Below, piece after piece: positions 1,807-52,623 of a stretch of 64,000 nt of DNA. This stretch comes from a virus, in the IMG/VR virus record IMGVR_UViG_3300037337_000032, positions 10,498-74,497 of that record; one strand, given 5' to 3'. Position 1 is the first letter of the stretch. Every line of letters starts with the position of its first letter. Below the pieces are notes generated by a model that was not told the origin of the DNA, ran no database searches, and saw only the letters and a program-made list of their open reading frames with translations. Position numbers and translations under genes: made by a program.

Positions 1807-4104
1807 ATGCGTTACATCATTGACATCGAGAGTACAAACCTACTACAAAATGGTTTAGATTACTCTTCTATGCCTTACACTTTAAAACCAGATTATAAAG
1901 TTTGGTGCGTAGTTGTGCGTAACATTGACACAAATGAAGTGCAATCGCTAGTAAAAGAAGAGATCACTTACAAGAATTTGAGCAGTATTTTAGAGGATTG
2001 TACGGAGCTTATCGGGCATAATATTGTAGCTTTTGACTTACCTGTTCTTATGCTCTATGGTGCATTAGACTATAGCGTAGGGTATCCAGATCAGAGTAGT
2101 ACACTCTTTGGTAAACCTGTAACTATTACAGATACACTTCTGTGGTCAAAACTTTTAAATGCAGATAGACTTGGAGGTCATAGTCTAGATGCCTGGGGTA
2201 AACGTTTAGGAAATACAAAGGCGCACTTTAAGGAATGGGATCGTTTCTCTCAAGAAATGCTAGACTATTGCATTCAAGACACTAGCGTAAACCATTCAGT
2301 ACTTACTGAAATTATTAAAGAGCAAGGTAAGACTGCTTGGAAAAGACCGTATAGTATGGAGGTAAAACTAACCGACCTTACTCTACGACAGGAACTCTTT
2401 GGTTTTGACTTTAACGTAGAACTGGCACATAAAAACGTAGCTGAACTATCTGGTTTTATGCAGGGTATTGCAAAGACCGTTGATCCTCTATTACCTAAGA
2501 AACGCATGACACAAGGCAACGCAAGTTTCTACCAGTTACCAAAGATCCGTTTCAAAAAGAATGGCGAAGTATCGTCTAATCTCATTAAGTTCTGTGAAAA
2601 GCTGGGTGCTGTACTATCAGAAGACCACCAAACTATTTTATATGATAATAAAGCATTTCCTATAACCACAGAAGTACCTCTAAAAAGTGAAGAGGAAGCA
2701 GATATTGAAGATATCGATGTAGTTAAGAGTTATTTACTAACACTGGGTTGGATTCCGTCAGAAGTAAAAGAGCGTGATATCGTAAAGAAAACAGATAAAA
2801 GTCTAAGAGATTATGATGGTATCATTGAAGCGATTGATAGGTATGTAAAGCAAACAGAGAACTCTGTATTTCGTGAGTTGCGCTTAGACTTCTTAGGTGT
2901 ACGCATGGACAATCTTCGTGCATTTCTTATCAAGAAGATTAACGGTACAAAACCTATTTACTTACCAACTACACCTAAACTAACTGTAGGATTAGAAAAA
3001 GAGATATGCCCTAATCTTATTGCACTTGGTGAAAAAGGTGATTTCGTAAAAGATGTAGTGCATTATTATACCTACAGGCATCGAAAGAACTCTATCTCTG
3101 GTGGTGCATTAGATGAAGATGGCGAGCCTATGACTGGTTTTCTAAGCGCAGTACGCGAAGATGGTCGTATACCTACACCTGCAGATACTTTAGGTGCAAA
3201 CACTGGGAGATACCGCCATAAGATTGTCTGTAATGTACCAAGGGTTACTTCTTTGTACGGGGAACAGATGCGTAGTTTATTTGGGAGTGGTAAAGGCTTG
3301 TGGCAACTTGGGTATGACTTTGCTTCACTAGAAGCTAGGGTTATGGGACACTATGTACTTCCTTATACTGATGGTGTAAATCTTGCAGATGCACTAGTCG
3401 CAGAAAAACCTAATGATATTCACAGTATTAATGCAGGTAAACTAGGTATTGATCGTACATCTGCCAAAAGTTTTTCATATGCAGCCATTTACGGCGCTCA
3501 ACCTAAAAAACTATCTAAGATGCTAGGCATCAGCGAAGCAGAGGGTCAAGCGTTATTTAAAGACTATTGGGATGCTGTACCTGCACTGAAGGAATTAAAA
3601 GAACGTGTAGAACAAAGATGGGAAGCAAGTGGCAAGAAAAGCATTCCGGGTATTGACGGTAGGTTGCTATCAACCCGAAGTAAGCACAGTCTTATTAATG
3701 TACTGTTTCAATCTGGTGGTGCTATTGCAGCTAAGTGGTCTGCTGTGCGTCTAGCTCAAGCAATGGAAGATGAGGGTATTTTAGGTGATCCTTTTAAGCA
3801 CAGTAAAAAAGATGTTAAAGTCTGGTGGTTGATCCACATGCACGATGAACAACAGATGGCATGTCATCCGAGCCTACTAAAGATTAAATCTTTTGAGTCT
3901 GAAGAAGAAGCTAAAGAATTTTGCAAGTTAAATGCAGGTTGTAGTGCTATCGGTCACGGTTCAAAGGGTGCTTACGTAGGTTTGAAGACCTTACCCGTAG
4001 ATTGCATTGAGAAAGGTATCAAACAAGCTTGCAATGAATTGAAACTCCGTGTAGACTTAGGCTTTGAATACATCCCCGGTGCAAATTGGGGGCAATGCCA
4101 CTAA
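1807..4104 (+). CDS. polA: family A DNA polymerase with 3'-5' exonuclease (T7-like)
   Basis: Exo motifs DIES, GHNIVAFD, YCIQD; pol motifs GYDFASLEAR, AKSFSYAAIYG (Tyr at T7 Y526-equivalent), HMHDE; ATG 1807 follows GGAAGGA. Confidence 0.95.
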   Translation: MRYIIDIESTNLLQNGLDYSSMPYTLKPDYKVWCVVVRNIDTNEVQSLVKEEITYKNLSSILEDCTELIGHNIVAFDLPVLMLYGALDYSVGYPDQSSTLFGKPVTITDTLLWSKLLNADRLGGHSLDAWGKRLGNTKAHFKEWDRFSQEMLDYCIQDTSVNHSVLTEIIKEQGKTAWKRPYSMEVKLTDLTLRQELFGFDFNVELAHKNVAELSGFMQGIAKTVDPLLPKKRMTQGNASFYQLPKIRFKKNGEVSSNLIKFCEKLGAVLSEDHQTILYDNKAFPITTEVPLKSEEEADIEDIDVVKSYLLTLGWIPSEVKERDIVKKTDKSLRDYDGIIEAIDRYVKQTENSVFRELRLDFLGVRMDNLRAFLIKKINGTKPIYLPTTPKLTVGLEKEICPNLIALGEKGDFVKDVVHYYTYRHRKNSISGGALDEDGEPMTGFLSAVREDGRIPTPADTLGANTGRYRHKIVCNVPRVTSLYGEQMRSLFGSGKGLWQLGYDFASLEARVMGHYVLPYTDGVNLADALVAEKPNDIHSINAGKLGIDRTSAKSFSYAAIYGAQPKKLSKMLGISEAEGQALFKDYWDAVPALKELKERVEQRWEASGKKSIPGIDGRLLSTRSKHSLINVLFQSGGAIAAKWSAVRLAQAMEDEGILGDPFKHSKKDVKVWWLIHMHDEQQMACHPSLLKIKSFESEEEAKEFCKLNAGCSAIGHGSKGAYVGLKTLPVDCIEKGIKQACNELKLRVDLGFEYIPGANWGQCH

Positions 4105-10494: not shown

Positions 10495-10659
10495 ATGACA
10501 CAAACTTGGATCAAATGGTTAGTAAATAATAGCATGCGATTTGTTGTATATTTTGTTTGGTTTTTAGTGCTACCGCTATATCTTATTGCATATGCTAAAG
10601 ACGCAGCTAGTGACGCCTCTAATGATCTTAAAAAAATTCAAAAACTCAAGAAGGATTAA
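10495..10659 (+). CDS. small membrane protein (54 aa, not in ORF track)
   Basis: AAGGA RBS; MTQTWIKWLV...FVVYFVWFLVLPLYLIAY...; stop abuts next ATG. Confidence 0.6.
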   Translation: MTQTWIKWLVNNSMRFVVYFVWFLVLPLYLIAYAKDAASDASNDLKKIQKLKKD

Positions 10660-46301: not shown

Positions 46302-46670
46302 TTAATGTTTATTTAATCTGTATCTTACACTATCAGGTAGTTTACCACCTTCACTGGTATTCCAGCCCATATTCTTAAAAGGTCTGAAAATACTCTCTAT
46401 GTAGTATGCTTGAGCTGCTGTGCATACGCATAATCTAGATATTATAATATCTTCTATTGCATATTCATTAAGTACAGTATGTAGTGCACTATAACTACTA
46501 GAAGTACTTTTAGCTTTTCTACAGTGCTCTTTAAATCTAACCTCTATTTCTCTAGTAGTAACACCAACGTATCCTTCTGAGAATACGTCAGTGTGTTCTT
46601 TTAAATGCAGCCAATATACATAAGCTGTTTTCTGGTTAGCCTGCGATAGACTACCTACGTTAGCCTGCAT
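46302..46670 (-). CDS. short GIY-YIG endonuclease
   Basis: YVYW...GYVGVT...RFKEH...E...GWN..GG. Confidence 0.75.
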   Translation of the reverse strand: MQANVGSLSQANQKTAYVYWLHLKEHTDVFSEGYVGVTTREIEVRFKEHCRKAKSTSSSYSALHTVLNEYAIEDIIISRLCVCTAAQAYYIESIFRPFKNMGWNTSEGGKLPDSVRYRLNKH

Positions 46671-48150: not shown

Positions 48151-50837
48151 TTATGATACTAATGAACTGCGATACTCAGGTATTACACCAGAAGCACCCG
48201 ATCCAAAGGGGTTTGAACCTGTGAAGTCAGGTAGTGAAAACGTAGGAATAACTAGCTCTTTATTTAACAAAAGAAAGGCATCTGAACAAACGTCTGCAAT
48301 GTCATCTTTCTTTTTAGGGTCACCATCGAATACTTCAAGTTCATCATAAAACGCTTTGTTCCAGTCTGCTTTTACTACATTAATAAAACCAGCTTGTGCT
48401 ACACTTGAGAATGGTGCAAAGCGAGTAACCTTTGATTTAACTGGTTTAGACAACCTTACGTTGAAGCCCATCTCTCCTAATTTGCGCTGTAAATCTCTTG
48501 CATAAGCTCCAGCAGCAGCAGCAGGATCAAGAGGGATAGATACTGTTACATCTTGACCATCATGCACTGCAGTCTCAAAGATCATTTTCTCTACGTTATG
48601 CACTCTATCTCTCATAGACCGTAGATCTTCTACAGTATACACATTAGTACTATCCTTTGACATTAGCACGCCACGAGTCCAGTCTGGATTAGGGTACTGC
48701 TCCGAAGGCAAGCTAAAGGCAAGATCCCATGCTCTAATGCGCTTCTTAGCTCTTCCGTTAGGTAGCTCTACCTCTTGTACCCACTCGCGTTTAAACAGCC
48801 CAGAGGACTGCTGACGAGCGTACCATGAACCTAGTAGCAACCGTTCCATTTCTACTCTAGGCAATGCCTTGAGTTTAGATATATAGGTAGGATCTGCTTT
48901 CATCAGTGGAGGGTTATCGTAGATTGTACCCGGTATGAACTTAAAGGTAAGAATACCAGATTGATCTCCTCCACCGTAAGTATCTTCTAGCTCTCGCTTA
49001 GTATCCGACCACACAAGAGATCCACCTGCTACTTGCACCATGTAGCGCATCGGGTATATTTCTTTTCTAATTGGTATACCACGTTCATCTAATGCGAATT
49101 CTACCCACTCTCTGATAAAACTATCATAGTCTGGATTGCCTGTAGCAAATGCTTGCTTCTTATAATCCACAGAAGTAGACCGTAGACGTGAAAGCAGGTA
49201 AACTACGTTATCTTGATTCAACTGCTGTATTTCATCAAAGCCTAGAAACGTTATTTCTGAACCTTGATAGTTATACTTATCTGAAGCAGTATCTAAATAT
49301 CCAAAACGTAATTTAGCTCCAGAACGAAAGATTAGCTCCTGCTCGCGCACTTTTACTCTCAGCTTAGGATCTACTTTTTTATACAGATTTACTGCTGAAT
49401 CAAATAAACCGCCTGGATTAGATATCTGTTTAGTAGTTCTTCTGAAGATTACACCACGAGTTCTAGGGTGGTGACAGAACTTCAGGAATGCACCTAAAAG
49501 ACAGTGCGAATTATGAGTAACAATGTAATTACTCGTTAAGAATAATCTGTCTTCACCTGAAATACTTATGCATGTAGCGTAATCTGAGGCAACTTTTGTT
49601 ATGCTGATTATGCGATTGCCAGTAATCTTGAACTTAGTCCTTGTACTTTTTCTAGGTAAGCTGAAGAGTTTGCTCTGATATTTACCTCTGATATATAAGT
49701 TGTATGAATCTAAGCATGGTACCTTAGCACCTAACTTGTTTTTGTAATACGTCTTTTTAACCTTAATAGAACAAGTAAACCCAAGCGAATGCAATACCTG
49801 TTTGATATCCGAAGCTAGTACCTCAGATGCAGTAGAATAATAACAAGCACCGCCTGCGTCTACATAGCCGTCTGTATCCATCAAACCTTGTAGAAGGTTG
49901 AAACGATCCTCTACTGTACTTCTTTTATATTCTTCTGGTATGAACTTAGTTTCAGACCTTTTACCATATAAGTTTAATTTCTTTAGTGCAGGTACTAGTT
50001 TTTGAACACCATACATAAATACATTATTAGGTTTCTCCGATGAGTACCTATTTACAGTATAACCTTCACTGCGAATTCTATCGATAATCTCTACATCTTG
50101 AGAGGTAATAGTAGCAATAGTTGACACTAAGCAGCCATCACCAATAAGCGCACCAAGTGTATATGGGGCTATATCTAACTGCTCTTTATCAAAGCCTATA
50201 GGCTCTGTAAGAGGTAGTATAGGTCTGAAACCTTTACCTAGTCTATTCAAAAGATGAAGAGTTGTATCAACCTTAACCTTGCCTCTGCCTCTAGCTTCAT
50301 GGTAAGACCAAAGGTGCTCACCGCAAACATCTACAGTAGAAGCATCTTGCATCTCAACCCTGTAAATATCTACTACACCCTGTGGGAATATACCTGTTAC
50401 TTTTTCCTTTGTGTTCTTGTGGGTTATTACTGTTTCGCCAATATAGATATCTTCTACATTCTTGAAACCAACATCAGTGAGCACTTTTTCACCATGTCTA
50501 AGTGCTTTACCAGAACCAGCTGCCTTTACTGTTATATGCTTCGTTAGAGCATCCCAAGTTTCCTTGGGTGTCGGACTATATCTTTGCAACTCAATGCACC
50601 TACTGTTTCAGCTCCACTTGGAGCTTACTCCCTTGCGGGATAGTCTCTACACACGCCCGAAGTTTCCTTCTGCTTGGCTCGGTATTGCCCTCGTCTTTAC
50701 GTTAGGGTTTCACCGAATTAAATAGGTTTTAAATGGAGGCGCATATGTTCACCACCATAGAATGTAATATCTGCATCACTCATTAAGAATTGTTCCTGAG
50801 CACTAGATGCAGGTGAAAATACAATGTTACTTGACAT
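48151..50837 (-). CDS. terL: terminase large subunit; exon 1 50837-50751 joined to exon 2 50523-48151; contains intein
   Basis: Spliced N-terminus MSSNIVFSP...ITFYGG|AAGSGK|S restores Walker A; FDEIQQ Walker B, ATGNP, RAWDLA, KDDIAD nuclease motifs; AAGGA RBS before 50837. Confidence 0.92.
49510..50505 (-). mobile_element. class 3 intein (332 aa) with LAGLIDADG homing endonuclease
   Basis: Starts ALRHGEKVLT, block B CGEHLW, block F ATCISI, ends VTHN|S; LGALIGDG and LQGLMDTDG motifs. Confidence 0.9.
50524..50750 (-). mobile_element. group I intron without ORF (227 nt)
   Basis: 5' exon ends U with P1 GGUGGU/GCCUCC; P AAUUCGGUGAA, Q AAUACCGAGCC, R GUAGAGACUA, S AAGAUAUAGUCC; P9 CCCAAG-GAAA-CUUGGG; terminal G. 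Confidence 0.92.
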
Positions 50838-50845
50838 TTATATCC

Positions 50846-51190
50846 TTAATCCGAGTTAATTACTTTTAAGCTAAATACTGGAGCATTCTGCTGCTGAATC
50901 TCAATACCTGCTTCATCTTGTGCTTCTTCTGTGTCATACATATCTAAAGTTAATCTGCGATAGTTATCCAAAAGGATAGTTGCAGCTTTTAGCTGATTTT
51001 GATGCGAAGCTTCTTGGTTCTTCATGATACTTGCAGCCTGTACAATAGCTTCAGCGATATGGGGCTTAATTCGCCTTAACAGCATAACCAACTCACGTTC
51101 TTTTAGTTCGCGGTTAGTTGGCTTATCACCTACAGTGTCTTGTCTAGGTGGTCTTCCCTGCGGGTTACCTGATTTACCTTTTATAAACAT
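50846..51190 (-). CDS. terS: putative terminase small subunit
   Basis: F.KGKSGNPQGRP (DUF5681-type) N-terminus; directly upstream of terL exon 1. Confidence 0.75.
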   Translation of the reverse strand: MFIKGKSGNPQGRPPRQDTVGDKPTNRELKERELVMLLRRIKPHIAEAIVQAASIMKNQEASHQNQLKAATILLDNYRRLTLDMYDTEEAQDEAGIEIQQQNAPVFSLKVINSD

Positions 51191-51406: not shown

Positions 51407-51491
51407 TGGTGGATATTCTAGGAGTCGAACCTAGTTGCCCGAAGGCCACAGATTTACAGTCTGCTGCAGTCGCCAATGCTGCTCAACATCC
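51407..51491 (-). tRNA. tRNA-Tyr(GUA)
   Basis: GGATGTT/AATATCC acceptor, GCAGA-CTGTAAA-TCTGT, long variable arm, T arm, CCA. Confidence 0.93.
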
Positions 51492-52131: not shown

Positions 52132-52623
52132 TCAATCGAATATACAATATCTGTTTAAAATCTTAGCGTATTTAAGTTGTATCCTAGAATACAGTATTTT
52201 AGCTATTACTACATCTTGCACTACTCTTACTTTATCCTTTGAATTCTCTTTCCATATCAGAAGATATGAAAACATATCCTTAGAATGCGGCTGCAGTTTT
52301 AAAGCACCTGATAAGTTTCTATGTGCTTCTTTGATAATATTATATATATTCTTAGGTAATAGTTTTAAGTTTATATACCTATAATCATCTTCATTTAAAT
52401 TTCTATGCAAGACTACTTTATCTTTTTGCACTATTATATTTTGCACAAGTTGTATTGCTGTCTTATTAGCTTTAAACTTTAATCTCTTACCATTCTTATA
52501 AAATATAATATAACCCTCTTCATTTGGAAATATCCTACGGTATCTTAAATTATTCTTTATTATAAAGAAAGCACCTTCAATCATGTCATAATCTAAAATT
52601 AAACTTATTTCTGTTATTGTCAT
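52132..52623 (-). CDS. degenerate HNH-endonuclease-like protein
   Basis: LDYD...G.F...EGY...VLHRNLNEDDYRYINL resembles HNH motif with substitutions. Confidence 0.45.
   Translation of the reverse strand: MTITEISLILDYDMIEGAFFIIKNNLRYRRIFPNEEGYIIFYKNGKRLKFKANKTAIQLVQNIIVQKDKVVLHRNLNEDDYRYINLKLLPKNIYNIIKEAHRNLSGALKLQPHSKDMFSYLLIWKENSKDKVRVVQDVVIAKILYSRIQLKYAKILNRYCIFD

Follow-up and report, generated by a model that had tools for sequence, protein, structure and literature searches.

An open reading frame-less group I intron and a predicted class 3 intein, 18 nt apart, interrupt the Walker A codons of a salt-lake phage terminase gene

The gene encoding the large terminase subunit (terL; protein, TerL) of a salt-lake phage was analyzed in a 64,000-nt stretch of DNA (hereafter, the window) covering positions 10,498 to 74,497 of the IMG/VR virus record IMGVR_UViG_3300037337_000032. 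The window is a part of this record, which comprises 74,497 bp with direct terminal repeats and is rated complete. The gene is encoded on the minus strand and begins with an ATG codon at 50837. The codons of its Walker A motif (the P-loop) are interrupted twice, by a group I intron and, six codons further on, by an intein with the hallmarks of class 3. The features of the locus, in the order of the window positions counted down along the coding strand, are as follows.

50843 to 50847, minus strand: Shine-Dalgarno sequence AAGGA, 5 nt ahead of the true terL ATG, overlapping the DUF5681 gene upstream at its stop codon (read from the sequence)
50751 to 50837, minus strand: terL exon 1, 29 codons, M...ITFYGG, ending in GGT GGT; first half of Walker A
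50524 to 50750, minus strand: group I intron, 227 nt, devoid of an open reading frame (ORF), helices P1 to P9.1 including the P7.1/P7.2 hairpins, terminal G at 50524
50718 to 50720, minus strand: in-frame TAA, 10 codons into the intron (read from the sequence)
50506 to 50523, minus strand: micro-exon AAGSGK, 18 nt, six codons; second half of Walker A, ending with the invariant Lys
49510 to 50505, minus strand: predicted class 3 intein (P0001) of 332 aa, containing a LAGLIDADG homing endonuclease domain; begins ALRHGEKVLT, ends VTHN
50308 to 50310, minus strand: Trp66, block B12 of the class 3 triad, two residues past the block B His; W in 124 of 127 inteins
50131 to 50157, minus strand: LAGLIDADG motif 1, LGALIGDGC; catalytic Asp123 (D in 116 of 127), G118 in 127 of 127
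49864 to 49893, minus strand: LAGLIDADG motif 2, LQGLMDTDGY; catalytic Asp212 (D in 124 of 127)
49570 to 49572, minus strand: Cys312, block F4, in ..ATCIS.., the predicted initiating nucleophile (role from PMC5050341, PMC2807308); C in 126 of 127
48151 to 49509, minus strand: TerL C-extein, 452 aa and the stop codon, beginning at the +1 Ser (49509); the remaining part of the ATPase and the nuclease domain

The relatives set comprised 80 IMG/VR loci with related TerL, numbered below with the prefix L. Judging by the Pfam matches of the exteins (Terminase_6N, 60.5 bits; Terminase_6C, 54.4 bits), the protein is a Terminase_6-type large terminase with ATPase and RNaseH-like nuclease domains, and its closest GenBank relative is the TerL of Limnohabitans phage DC31 (62% identity). 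Exon 1 aligns with the N-termini of the uninterrupted TerL of DC31 and Pseudomonas phage PaGz-1 as well as of 70 loci, and it is 100% identical in L004 and L005. Once both inserts are removed, Walker A is restored, the spliced N-terminus aligns gap-free to DC31 and PaGz-1, and the predicted mature TerL comprises 29 + 6 + 452 = 487 aa. The extein is under strong purifying selection, with a ratio of nonsynonymous to synonymous changes (pN/pS) of 0–0.10 in comparison with L004–L006, and terL is the sole Terminase_6N gene of the complete 74.5-kb genome.

The initial annotation of this locus had given coordinates and counts for exon 1, the 227-nt intron, AAGSGK, the 332-aa intein, and the 487-aa TerL, and each of them holds. 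Its statement that the N-terminus of the called ORF is read out of the intron was also correct: this 812-aa ORF starts with TTG at 50589, inside the intron, from which it draws its first 22 residues. The description of the insert as a group I intron with a U.G pair in P1, a terminal G, and no endonuclease, the assignment of the second insert to class 3 LAGLIDADG inteins ending in HN/S, and the notion that both splicing steps are needed for YGGAAGSGKS (the empty-site TerL of DC31 and PaGz-1 reading contiguously there) are borne out by the evidence below, including the Infernal-type search with a group I model, which had been proposed as a check and returned the full model above the gathering score.

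The translation of unspliced RNA would end at the intron TAA after 39 residues, and the annotated 812-aa ORF, with its start within the intron, lacks half of the P-loop. As same-site introns are widespread among the TerL genes of this clade, automated annotation of terL is systematically wrong in these phages.

Both junctions are proven by the existence of natural empty-site alleles, so the boundaries of the two elements are a matter of observation. The uninterrupted TerL of DC31 (489 aa) reads ITLAGGAAGSGKTYTS across both junctions (GGAAGSGKT), and that of PaGz-1 reads ITVFGGAAGAGKSY. L004, which shows 98.5–100% nucleotide identity to the window in every compared segment, has exon 1 joined to exon 2, with exactly 227 nt absent; the intron is likewise exactly absent from L006 (89–98% identical, depending on the segment), and it is present in L005, where it is 100% identical to that of the window. 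On the other side of the micro-exon, L007 and L025 (86–87% protein identity) have K joined straight to S, with exactly 996 nt absent. Thus, the micro-exon follows exon 1 directly in L004 and is directly followed by the C-extein in L007 and L025. The 996-nt intein insert between K and S of GKS is also absent from DC31 and many other relatives.

The stretch 49400–50900 is present in six salt-lake metagenomes (X1–X6) from six studies, of which X1 may be the sample of origin; no RNA dataset was listed among those containing it. In X4, a unitig skips exactly 49509–50506, with the 3′ end of the intron preceding the gap, and the depth of the intein unitig is about half that of the intron and C-extein unitigs. 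This difference fits a mix of intein-plus and intein-minus genomes.

The intron matches the Rfam model RF00028 at 50760–50552 with 64.3 bits (E 5.7e-16; gathering score, 50) over the full model, 1–253, and the scan of the whole genome agrees. In the Rfam alignment, the exon end GGUGGU pairs with the internal guide to form P1 with the U.G splice-site pair at U50751; exon 2 starts with GCA, which can pair with the UGC beside the guide, giving a P10 of 3 bp (read from the sequence). Six distinct introns occupy the same site (the window, L015, L016, L017, L021, and L038); they are 219–233 nt long and 69–89% identical. In the multi-locus Rfam run, those of L015, L016, L017, and L038 fell below the gathering score; they are nonetheless homologous by blastn and covariation.

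Covariation was assessed in an alignment of seven introns, i.e., the six same-site ones and the intron of L035 from a neighboring site, against a specified fold of 11 helices (P1, P3, P4, P5, P6, P7, two hairpins between P7 and P3′, P8, P9, and P9.1). Standard pairs form in 97.2% of the helix cells, the P3/P7 pseudoknot included. Compensatory changes on both sides were recorded in 37 of 63 pairs, with every helix represented and with 6/6 in the P3 pseudoknot. None of 500 shuffles reached the observed values, and slid partners pair only in 37–42%. The terminal G is found in all seven introns and the U.G pair is kept in all six same-site ones. The structural constraint is thus directly visible, and the window's intron is a constrained group I ribozyme for which self-splicing is predicted. 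The two hairpins between P7 and P3′ (helices 7 and 8) covary as well. In the scheme of Michel and Westhof, extra P7.1/P7.2 hairpins between P7 and P3′ mark subgroup IA; the two hairpins and this classical scheme suggest that the intron belongs to subgroup IA. No ORF with a nuclease domain was found in its 227 nt, and Rfam revealed no second group I intron in the whole genome. Megablast of the gene against GenBank phages returned only matches of 45–65 nt, which fall in the conserved core of introns from unrelated phages.

According to Kelley et al., class 3 inteins are defined by the lack of a nucleophile at position 1 and by a Trp-Cys-Thr (WCT) triad in B12, F4, and G5 (PMC5050341). Residue conservation was inspected across 127 homologous inteins aligned together with their flanking sequences. 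The residue at −1 is Lys in 105 of them. Position 1 is Ala in the window and in 96/127 (Cys in 3, Ser in 1). The block B His is invariant (127/127), Thr330 of block G5, located in VTHN, is conserved in 126/127, and the triad is completed by the Trp66 and Cys312 listed above. At the C-terminus, His331 occurs in 126/127 and Asn332 in 127/127, followed by T, S, or C at +1 in all the 127 cases. The endonuclease domain is recognized by Pfam as LAGLIDADG_3 (33.7 bits; cut-off, 22.5) and Hom_end (21.2 bits; cut-off, 21.1). Its pN/pS among the window, L004, L005, and L006 is 0.05–0.22, which indicates purifying selection; these values are near those of the extein, so the enzyme is probably still functional. 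Taken together, these characters place the window's intein in class 3, with an endonuclease predicted to be intact.

The exhaustive HMMER search returned 17,336 related cluster representatives at E ≤ 1e-3. In GenBank phages, relatives of the intein occur in 871 records, where they reside in helicases, terminases, and DarB-like proteins; the most similar of them is 38.6% identical. The insertion point between GK and S/T is the “classic” P-loop intein site (PMC5050341).

Allele states were scored for all loci with a readable N-terminus, 76 TerL in total:

58 of 76: neither element
10 of 76: intron only, at the window's site (7 distinct TerL sequences on several tree branches)
2 of 76: a different intron, 6 nt downstream (between GGAA and GSGK)
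3 of 76: intein only
1 of 76: two inteins, intron absent
2 of 76: both intron and intein (the window and L005)

On the TerL tree, the intron state requires at least six changes and the intein state three, and in independent pairs a difference in one trait is almost never accompanied by a difference in the other. The raw counts give a Fisher p of 0.24 for the association between the intron and the intein; these tests have little power, yet no sign of linkage emerged from them. The initial annotation had also proposed that the intron may hitch-hike on the intein endonuclease as a part of a composite unit. This claim fared differently from the rest: the co-occurrence survey shows an independent distribution of the two elements, the very outcome which had been named there as speaking against it.

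Other elements were encountered in terL of the relatives. In the DC31-like clade, L035 (3228–3464; also L036) carries a different group I intron of 237 nt, 6 nt downstream of the window's site (Rfam, 73 bits). L071 has two P-loop inserts in one allele (2307–3476): the first is a candidate mini-intein of 155 aa between SAG and SGK (CFDKDTEYLT...VYVSGN, +1 Ser) with no Pfam family, and the second, three residues on, is a 232-aa relative of the window's intein, which has lost most of the endonuclease domain. Further group I introns lie in the nuclease domain of TerL in L021 (4670–5462; also L022–L024; Rfam, 75 bits), with a 175-aa ORF of no assigned family after the ribozyme core, and about 90 codons into the C-extein in L038 (2725–2939; Rfam, 59.6 bits). 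Overall, within 24 nt, the Walker A codons of the relatives harbor two sites for introns and two for inteins, and all the combinations of introns and inteins segregate in nature, some of them within the same salt-lake samples.

The four close genomes (the window, L004, L005, and L006) all bear the intein, and only two of them, the window and L005, have the intron. Between 50783 and 50150, the intron is the sole difference between L005 and L004; the single-nucleotide polymorphism at 50784, common to the intron-less L004 and L006, is the only marker linked to the intron state. In an intein-occupied allele, the target of the homing endonuclease would be lost, as the contiguous site is interrupted. 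Since these alleles are already occupied by the intein, the intron polymorphism between L004 and the window would not be the work of this enzyme; recombination between intein-bearing alleles explains it.

The identities of the same-site introns follow the TerL tree: L015 and L016, which are sisters, share 89%, and the basal L017 shows 69–76%; the third positions of the exons are saturated in this comparison. Given this agreement, the intron looks like a long-standing occupant of its site that has undergone several precise losses, the intein having arrived later. The synonymous divergence between the window and L006 is lower in the intein (0.10) than in the extein (0.18), which could reflect a later transfer of the intein without the intron; the mosaicism of the C-extein precludes a conclusion. 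When the window was compared along its length with L007, L025, L016, and others, the identity profiles revealed no clear tract of conversion near the P-loop; the 92% identity of exon 1 exceeds the 66–84% found downstream, but this exon is too short to interpret.

Other candidate helper nucleases were considered as well. No other LAGLIDADG gene was found in the genome, and the only clear HNH domain belongs to a protein of 582 aa encoded far away, outside the window. Two ORFs on the minus strand score below the Pfam cut-offs: an HNH_3-like ORF upstream of terL (52132–52623, 163 aa, 15.8 bits) and a GIY-YIG-like ORF overlapping the end of the portal gene (46302–46670, 122 aa). Both were rejected as intron helpers: relatives in every intron and intein state have them, and they are, therefore, unlinked to the intron. 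The GIY-YIG-like ORF is only 66–69% identical to its counterparts in L004, L005, and L006, with the flanking genes at 96–99%; its region represents a local mosaic, as is seen around free-standing nucleases.

The search based on the intein also uncovered a second TerL lineage, the C-extein of which is only 29% identical to that of the window. In two of its members, L154 and L155, GGTGGT is followed by a group I intron of 258 nt (Rfam, 54.6 and 53.3 bits), which lies 15 nt (micro-exon AGGGK) ahead of a 46%-identical class 3 intein (both elements together at 1214–2500 in L154). L156 (2241–2485) and L157 have an intron only, and L158 has the intein only, a mix like that in the window's clade. The spacing of 15 nt vs. 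18 nt shows that no unit of intron and intein moved between the two clades. The intron of L154 is only 53% identical to that of L156, and the intein is present in L154 and not in L156. At the same time, the exons flanking these elements are 93–96% identical between L154 and L156 around the P-loop, falling to about 60% at 1.5 kb. One joint replacement of intron and intein would explain both differences.

With these findings in view, it is very likely that terL is one gene hosting two unrelated selfish elements with separate histories, which reside in the same conserved Walker A codons. The pre-mRNA would carry the 227-nt ribozyme, whose guide would pair with GGUGGU, placing the U.G pair at U50751, and guanosine-initiated self-splicing would join GGU to GCA. 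The spliced mRNA would be translated into an 819-aa precursor with the class 3 intein between the invariant P-loop Lys and Ser. Cys312 of block F would then attack the Lys–Ala1 bond, the branch would be handed to Ser+1, and Asn332 would cyclize; the predicted products are the 487-aa TerL with YGGAAGSGKS and a free LAGLIDADG endonuclease able to home into intein-less alleles. The intron would represent an old nuclease-less inhabitant of the site after GGTGGT in this TerL clade, precisely lost several times, and the intein would have entered the sub-lineage of the window after the intron. Ordinary recombination among co-occurring salt-lake phages would shuffle the intron-plus and intron-minus states.

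Several points weigh against this interpretation. Both splicing reactions are predicted from the sequence. Pfam gave no match to a HINT splicing domain in the window's intein; the domain is supported by its splicing-block motifs and by weak similarity to gp41-1, an intein of class 1 (E 8.6e-5), the only hit returned by a phmmer search of PDB sequences, which matched no class 3 structure. The association test is underpowered, the independent pairs offer too few events for significance either way, and gain of the intron is indistinguishable from its loss on the unrooted count. Finally, the pattern in L154 and L156 is what a joint transfer of intron and intein would be expected to leave, in a single case.

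This pattern, a gain of the intein coinciding with replacement of the intron in a conversion-like patch, speaks for a composite mobile unit, in which the intron would spread mainly by co-conversion when the intein enzyme cuts an empty terL 18 nt away, so that both would travel and persist together. Composites of intron and intein are found in both TerL clades, which share only 29% identity, and the intein endonuclease looks intact and constrained, with both Asp residues in place and the pN/pS values given above. In homing by double-strand-break repair, typical co-conversion tracts far exceed 18 nt, and the spacing of the two elements is well within them. Moreover, homing of a nuclease-less intron in trans has been proven for the nrdB intron of T4, served by mobE (PMC2790892), and a model with a free-standing endonuclease and the psbA intron is cited in PMC2814812. 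The window resembles these systems of trans or collaborative homing in having an intron without a working nuclease of its own beside a separately encoded homing endonuclease; unlike in them, the possible helper is encoded by an intein, i.e., at the level of protein splicing, and the distribution of the intron is independent of it. This distribution (10 intron-only alleles, 3 intein-only alleles, and 1 double-intein allele without the intron vs. 2 composites, with no association on the tree) makes the composite unit improbable, and so do L004 and L006, which have the same intein and no intron at 95–99% identity, the unequal spacing in the two clades, and the co-divergence of the same-site introns with TerL. 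Adjacent inteins of haloarchaeal MCM display interference instead of co-homing (PMC10643990). Co-conversion in a cross with an empty allele is mechanistically plausible, but the distribution of the intron is not explained by it. Because of L154 and L156, a lesser version is kept as a minority view: it is possible, though rather doubtful, that the intein endonuclease at times carries the neighboring nuclease-less intron, a cross-level trans-homing. If true, the terminase P-loop would be a natural arena in which introns and inteins exchange mobility functions.

Two further accounts concern the fate of the gene itself. Since RNA splicing and protein splicing would both be strictly required for a P-loop, the phage might keep the two elements as a double checkpoint gating the timing or the conditions of packaging. 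Inteins and introns have been proposed, in general terms, to act as sensors through conditional splicing (Belfort 2017, as cited in PMC11878797), and the TerL intron of phiAGATE splices late in infection (PMC11878797). Such a role is very improbable here: neither element is needed, since close relatives manage without one or both of them (L004 at about 99% identity; L007 and L025), the sporadic distribution is parasite-like, and no regulatory feature was found at the locus. One could also suppose a decaying pseudogene or a dead intron relic that no longer splices. This is hardly credible for the sole Terminase_6N gene of a complete genome with terminal repeats, in view of the constraint on its extein, the compensatory changes in every helix of the intron, and the occurrence of the same allele in several metagenomes.

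Both elements belong to well-known kinds. Group I introns in terL, with splicing demonstrated, are known from LL-H, rV5, and Bastillevirinae (SIOphi, phiAGATE) (PMC3606486, PMC11878797). As in those phages, terL is interrupted by a group I intron of the self-splicing type, whose architecture, with additional hairpins between P7 and P3′, is usual for phage introns, and packaging would depend on its splicing. The window's intron differs in its length (227 nt vs. a mean of about 800 nt in Bastillevirinae), the lack of an endonuclease ORF, the position within the Walker A codons, and membership of a same-site family found across a whole TerL clade. TerL is also the commonest intein host in actinobacteriophages (10.1101/2025.01.02.630785), and class 3 P-loop inteins of phage ATPases are established, e.g., at the mycobacteriophage TerL1-a site and in Bethlehem DnaB (PMC5050341, PMC2807308). 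The intein of the window shares with them the Walker A site between Lys and Ser/Thr, the absence of a nucleophile at position 1, the WCT triad in B12/F4/G5, LAGLIDADG, and a phage terminase as the host. It differs in having the +1 Ser, in its host, a Terminase_6-type TerL of a Pakpunavirus-like phage from salt-lake metagenomes, and in being at most 38.6% identical to any GenBank phage intein; the TerL6 proteins of mycobacteriophages, unlike that of the window, carry inteins at the C-motif only.

Multiple invasion of one gene is documented, too: crAss-like phages have TerL with two inteins and intron-dense genomes (PMC7886860), and phage ribonucleotide reductase genes are multiply invaded (PMC3653736). 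As at the MCM-a and MCM-d sites of haloarchaea (PMC10643990) and in other multiply invaded genes, elements crowd one nucleotide-binding motif in the window's terL clade, single occupancy is common, and co-homing is unsupported by phylogeny. The difference is that the neighbors in the window act at the RNA level and at the protein level, respectively, and are 18 nt apart; the relatives add a second intron site 6 nt off and a second intein site three residues off. In the literature, no paper was found describing an intron and an intein so close together in a terminase P-loop. Their stacking is unusual, and the data argue against a new mechanism. The value of the locus consists in the correct annotation of terL and in a compact natural system, useful for co-homing tests, for studying the interactions of neighboring selfish elements, i.e., whether they help, ignore, or hinder each other's homing. 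So far, this question has been tested only for the paired haloarchaeal inteins (PMC10643990).

A minor observation concerns the region upstream of terL, where a tRNA-Tyr(GTA) gene (51407–51491, minus strand) lies between the 163-aa HNH_3-like ORF and the DUF5681 gene. The same place in the relatives is occupied by arrays of up to about ten tRNA genes (Rfam matches in L021, L007, and L025); L025, L035, and L068 additionally have a match to the int-alpA RNA model.

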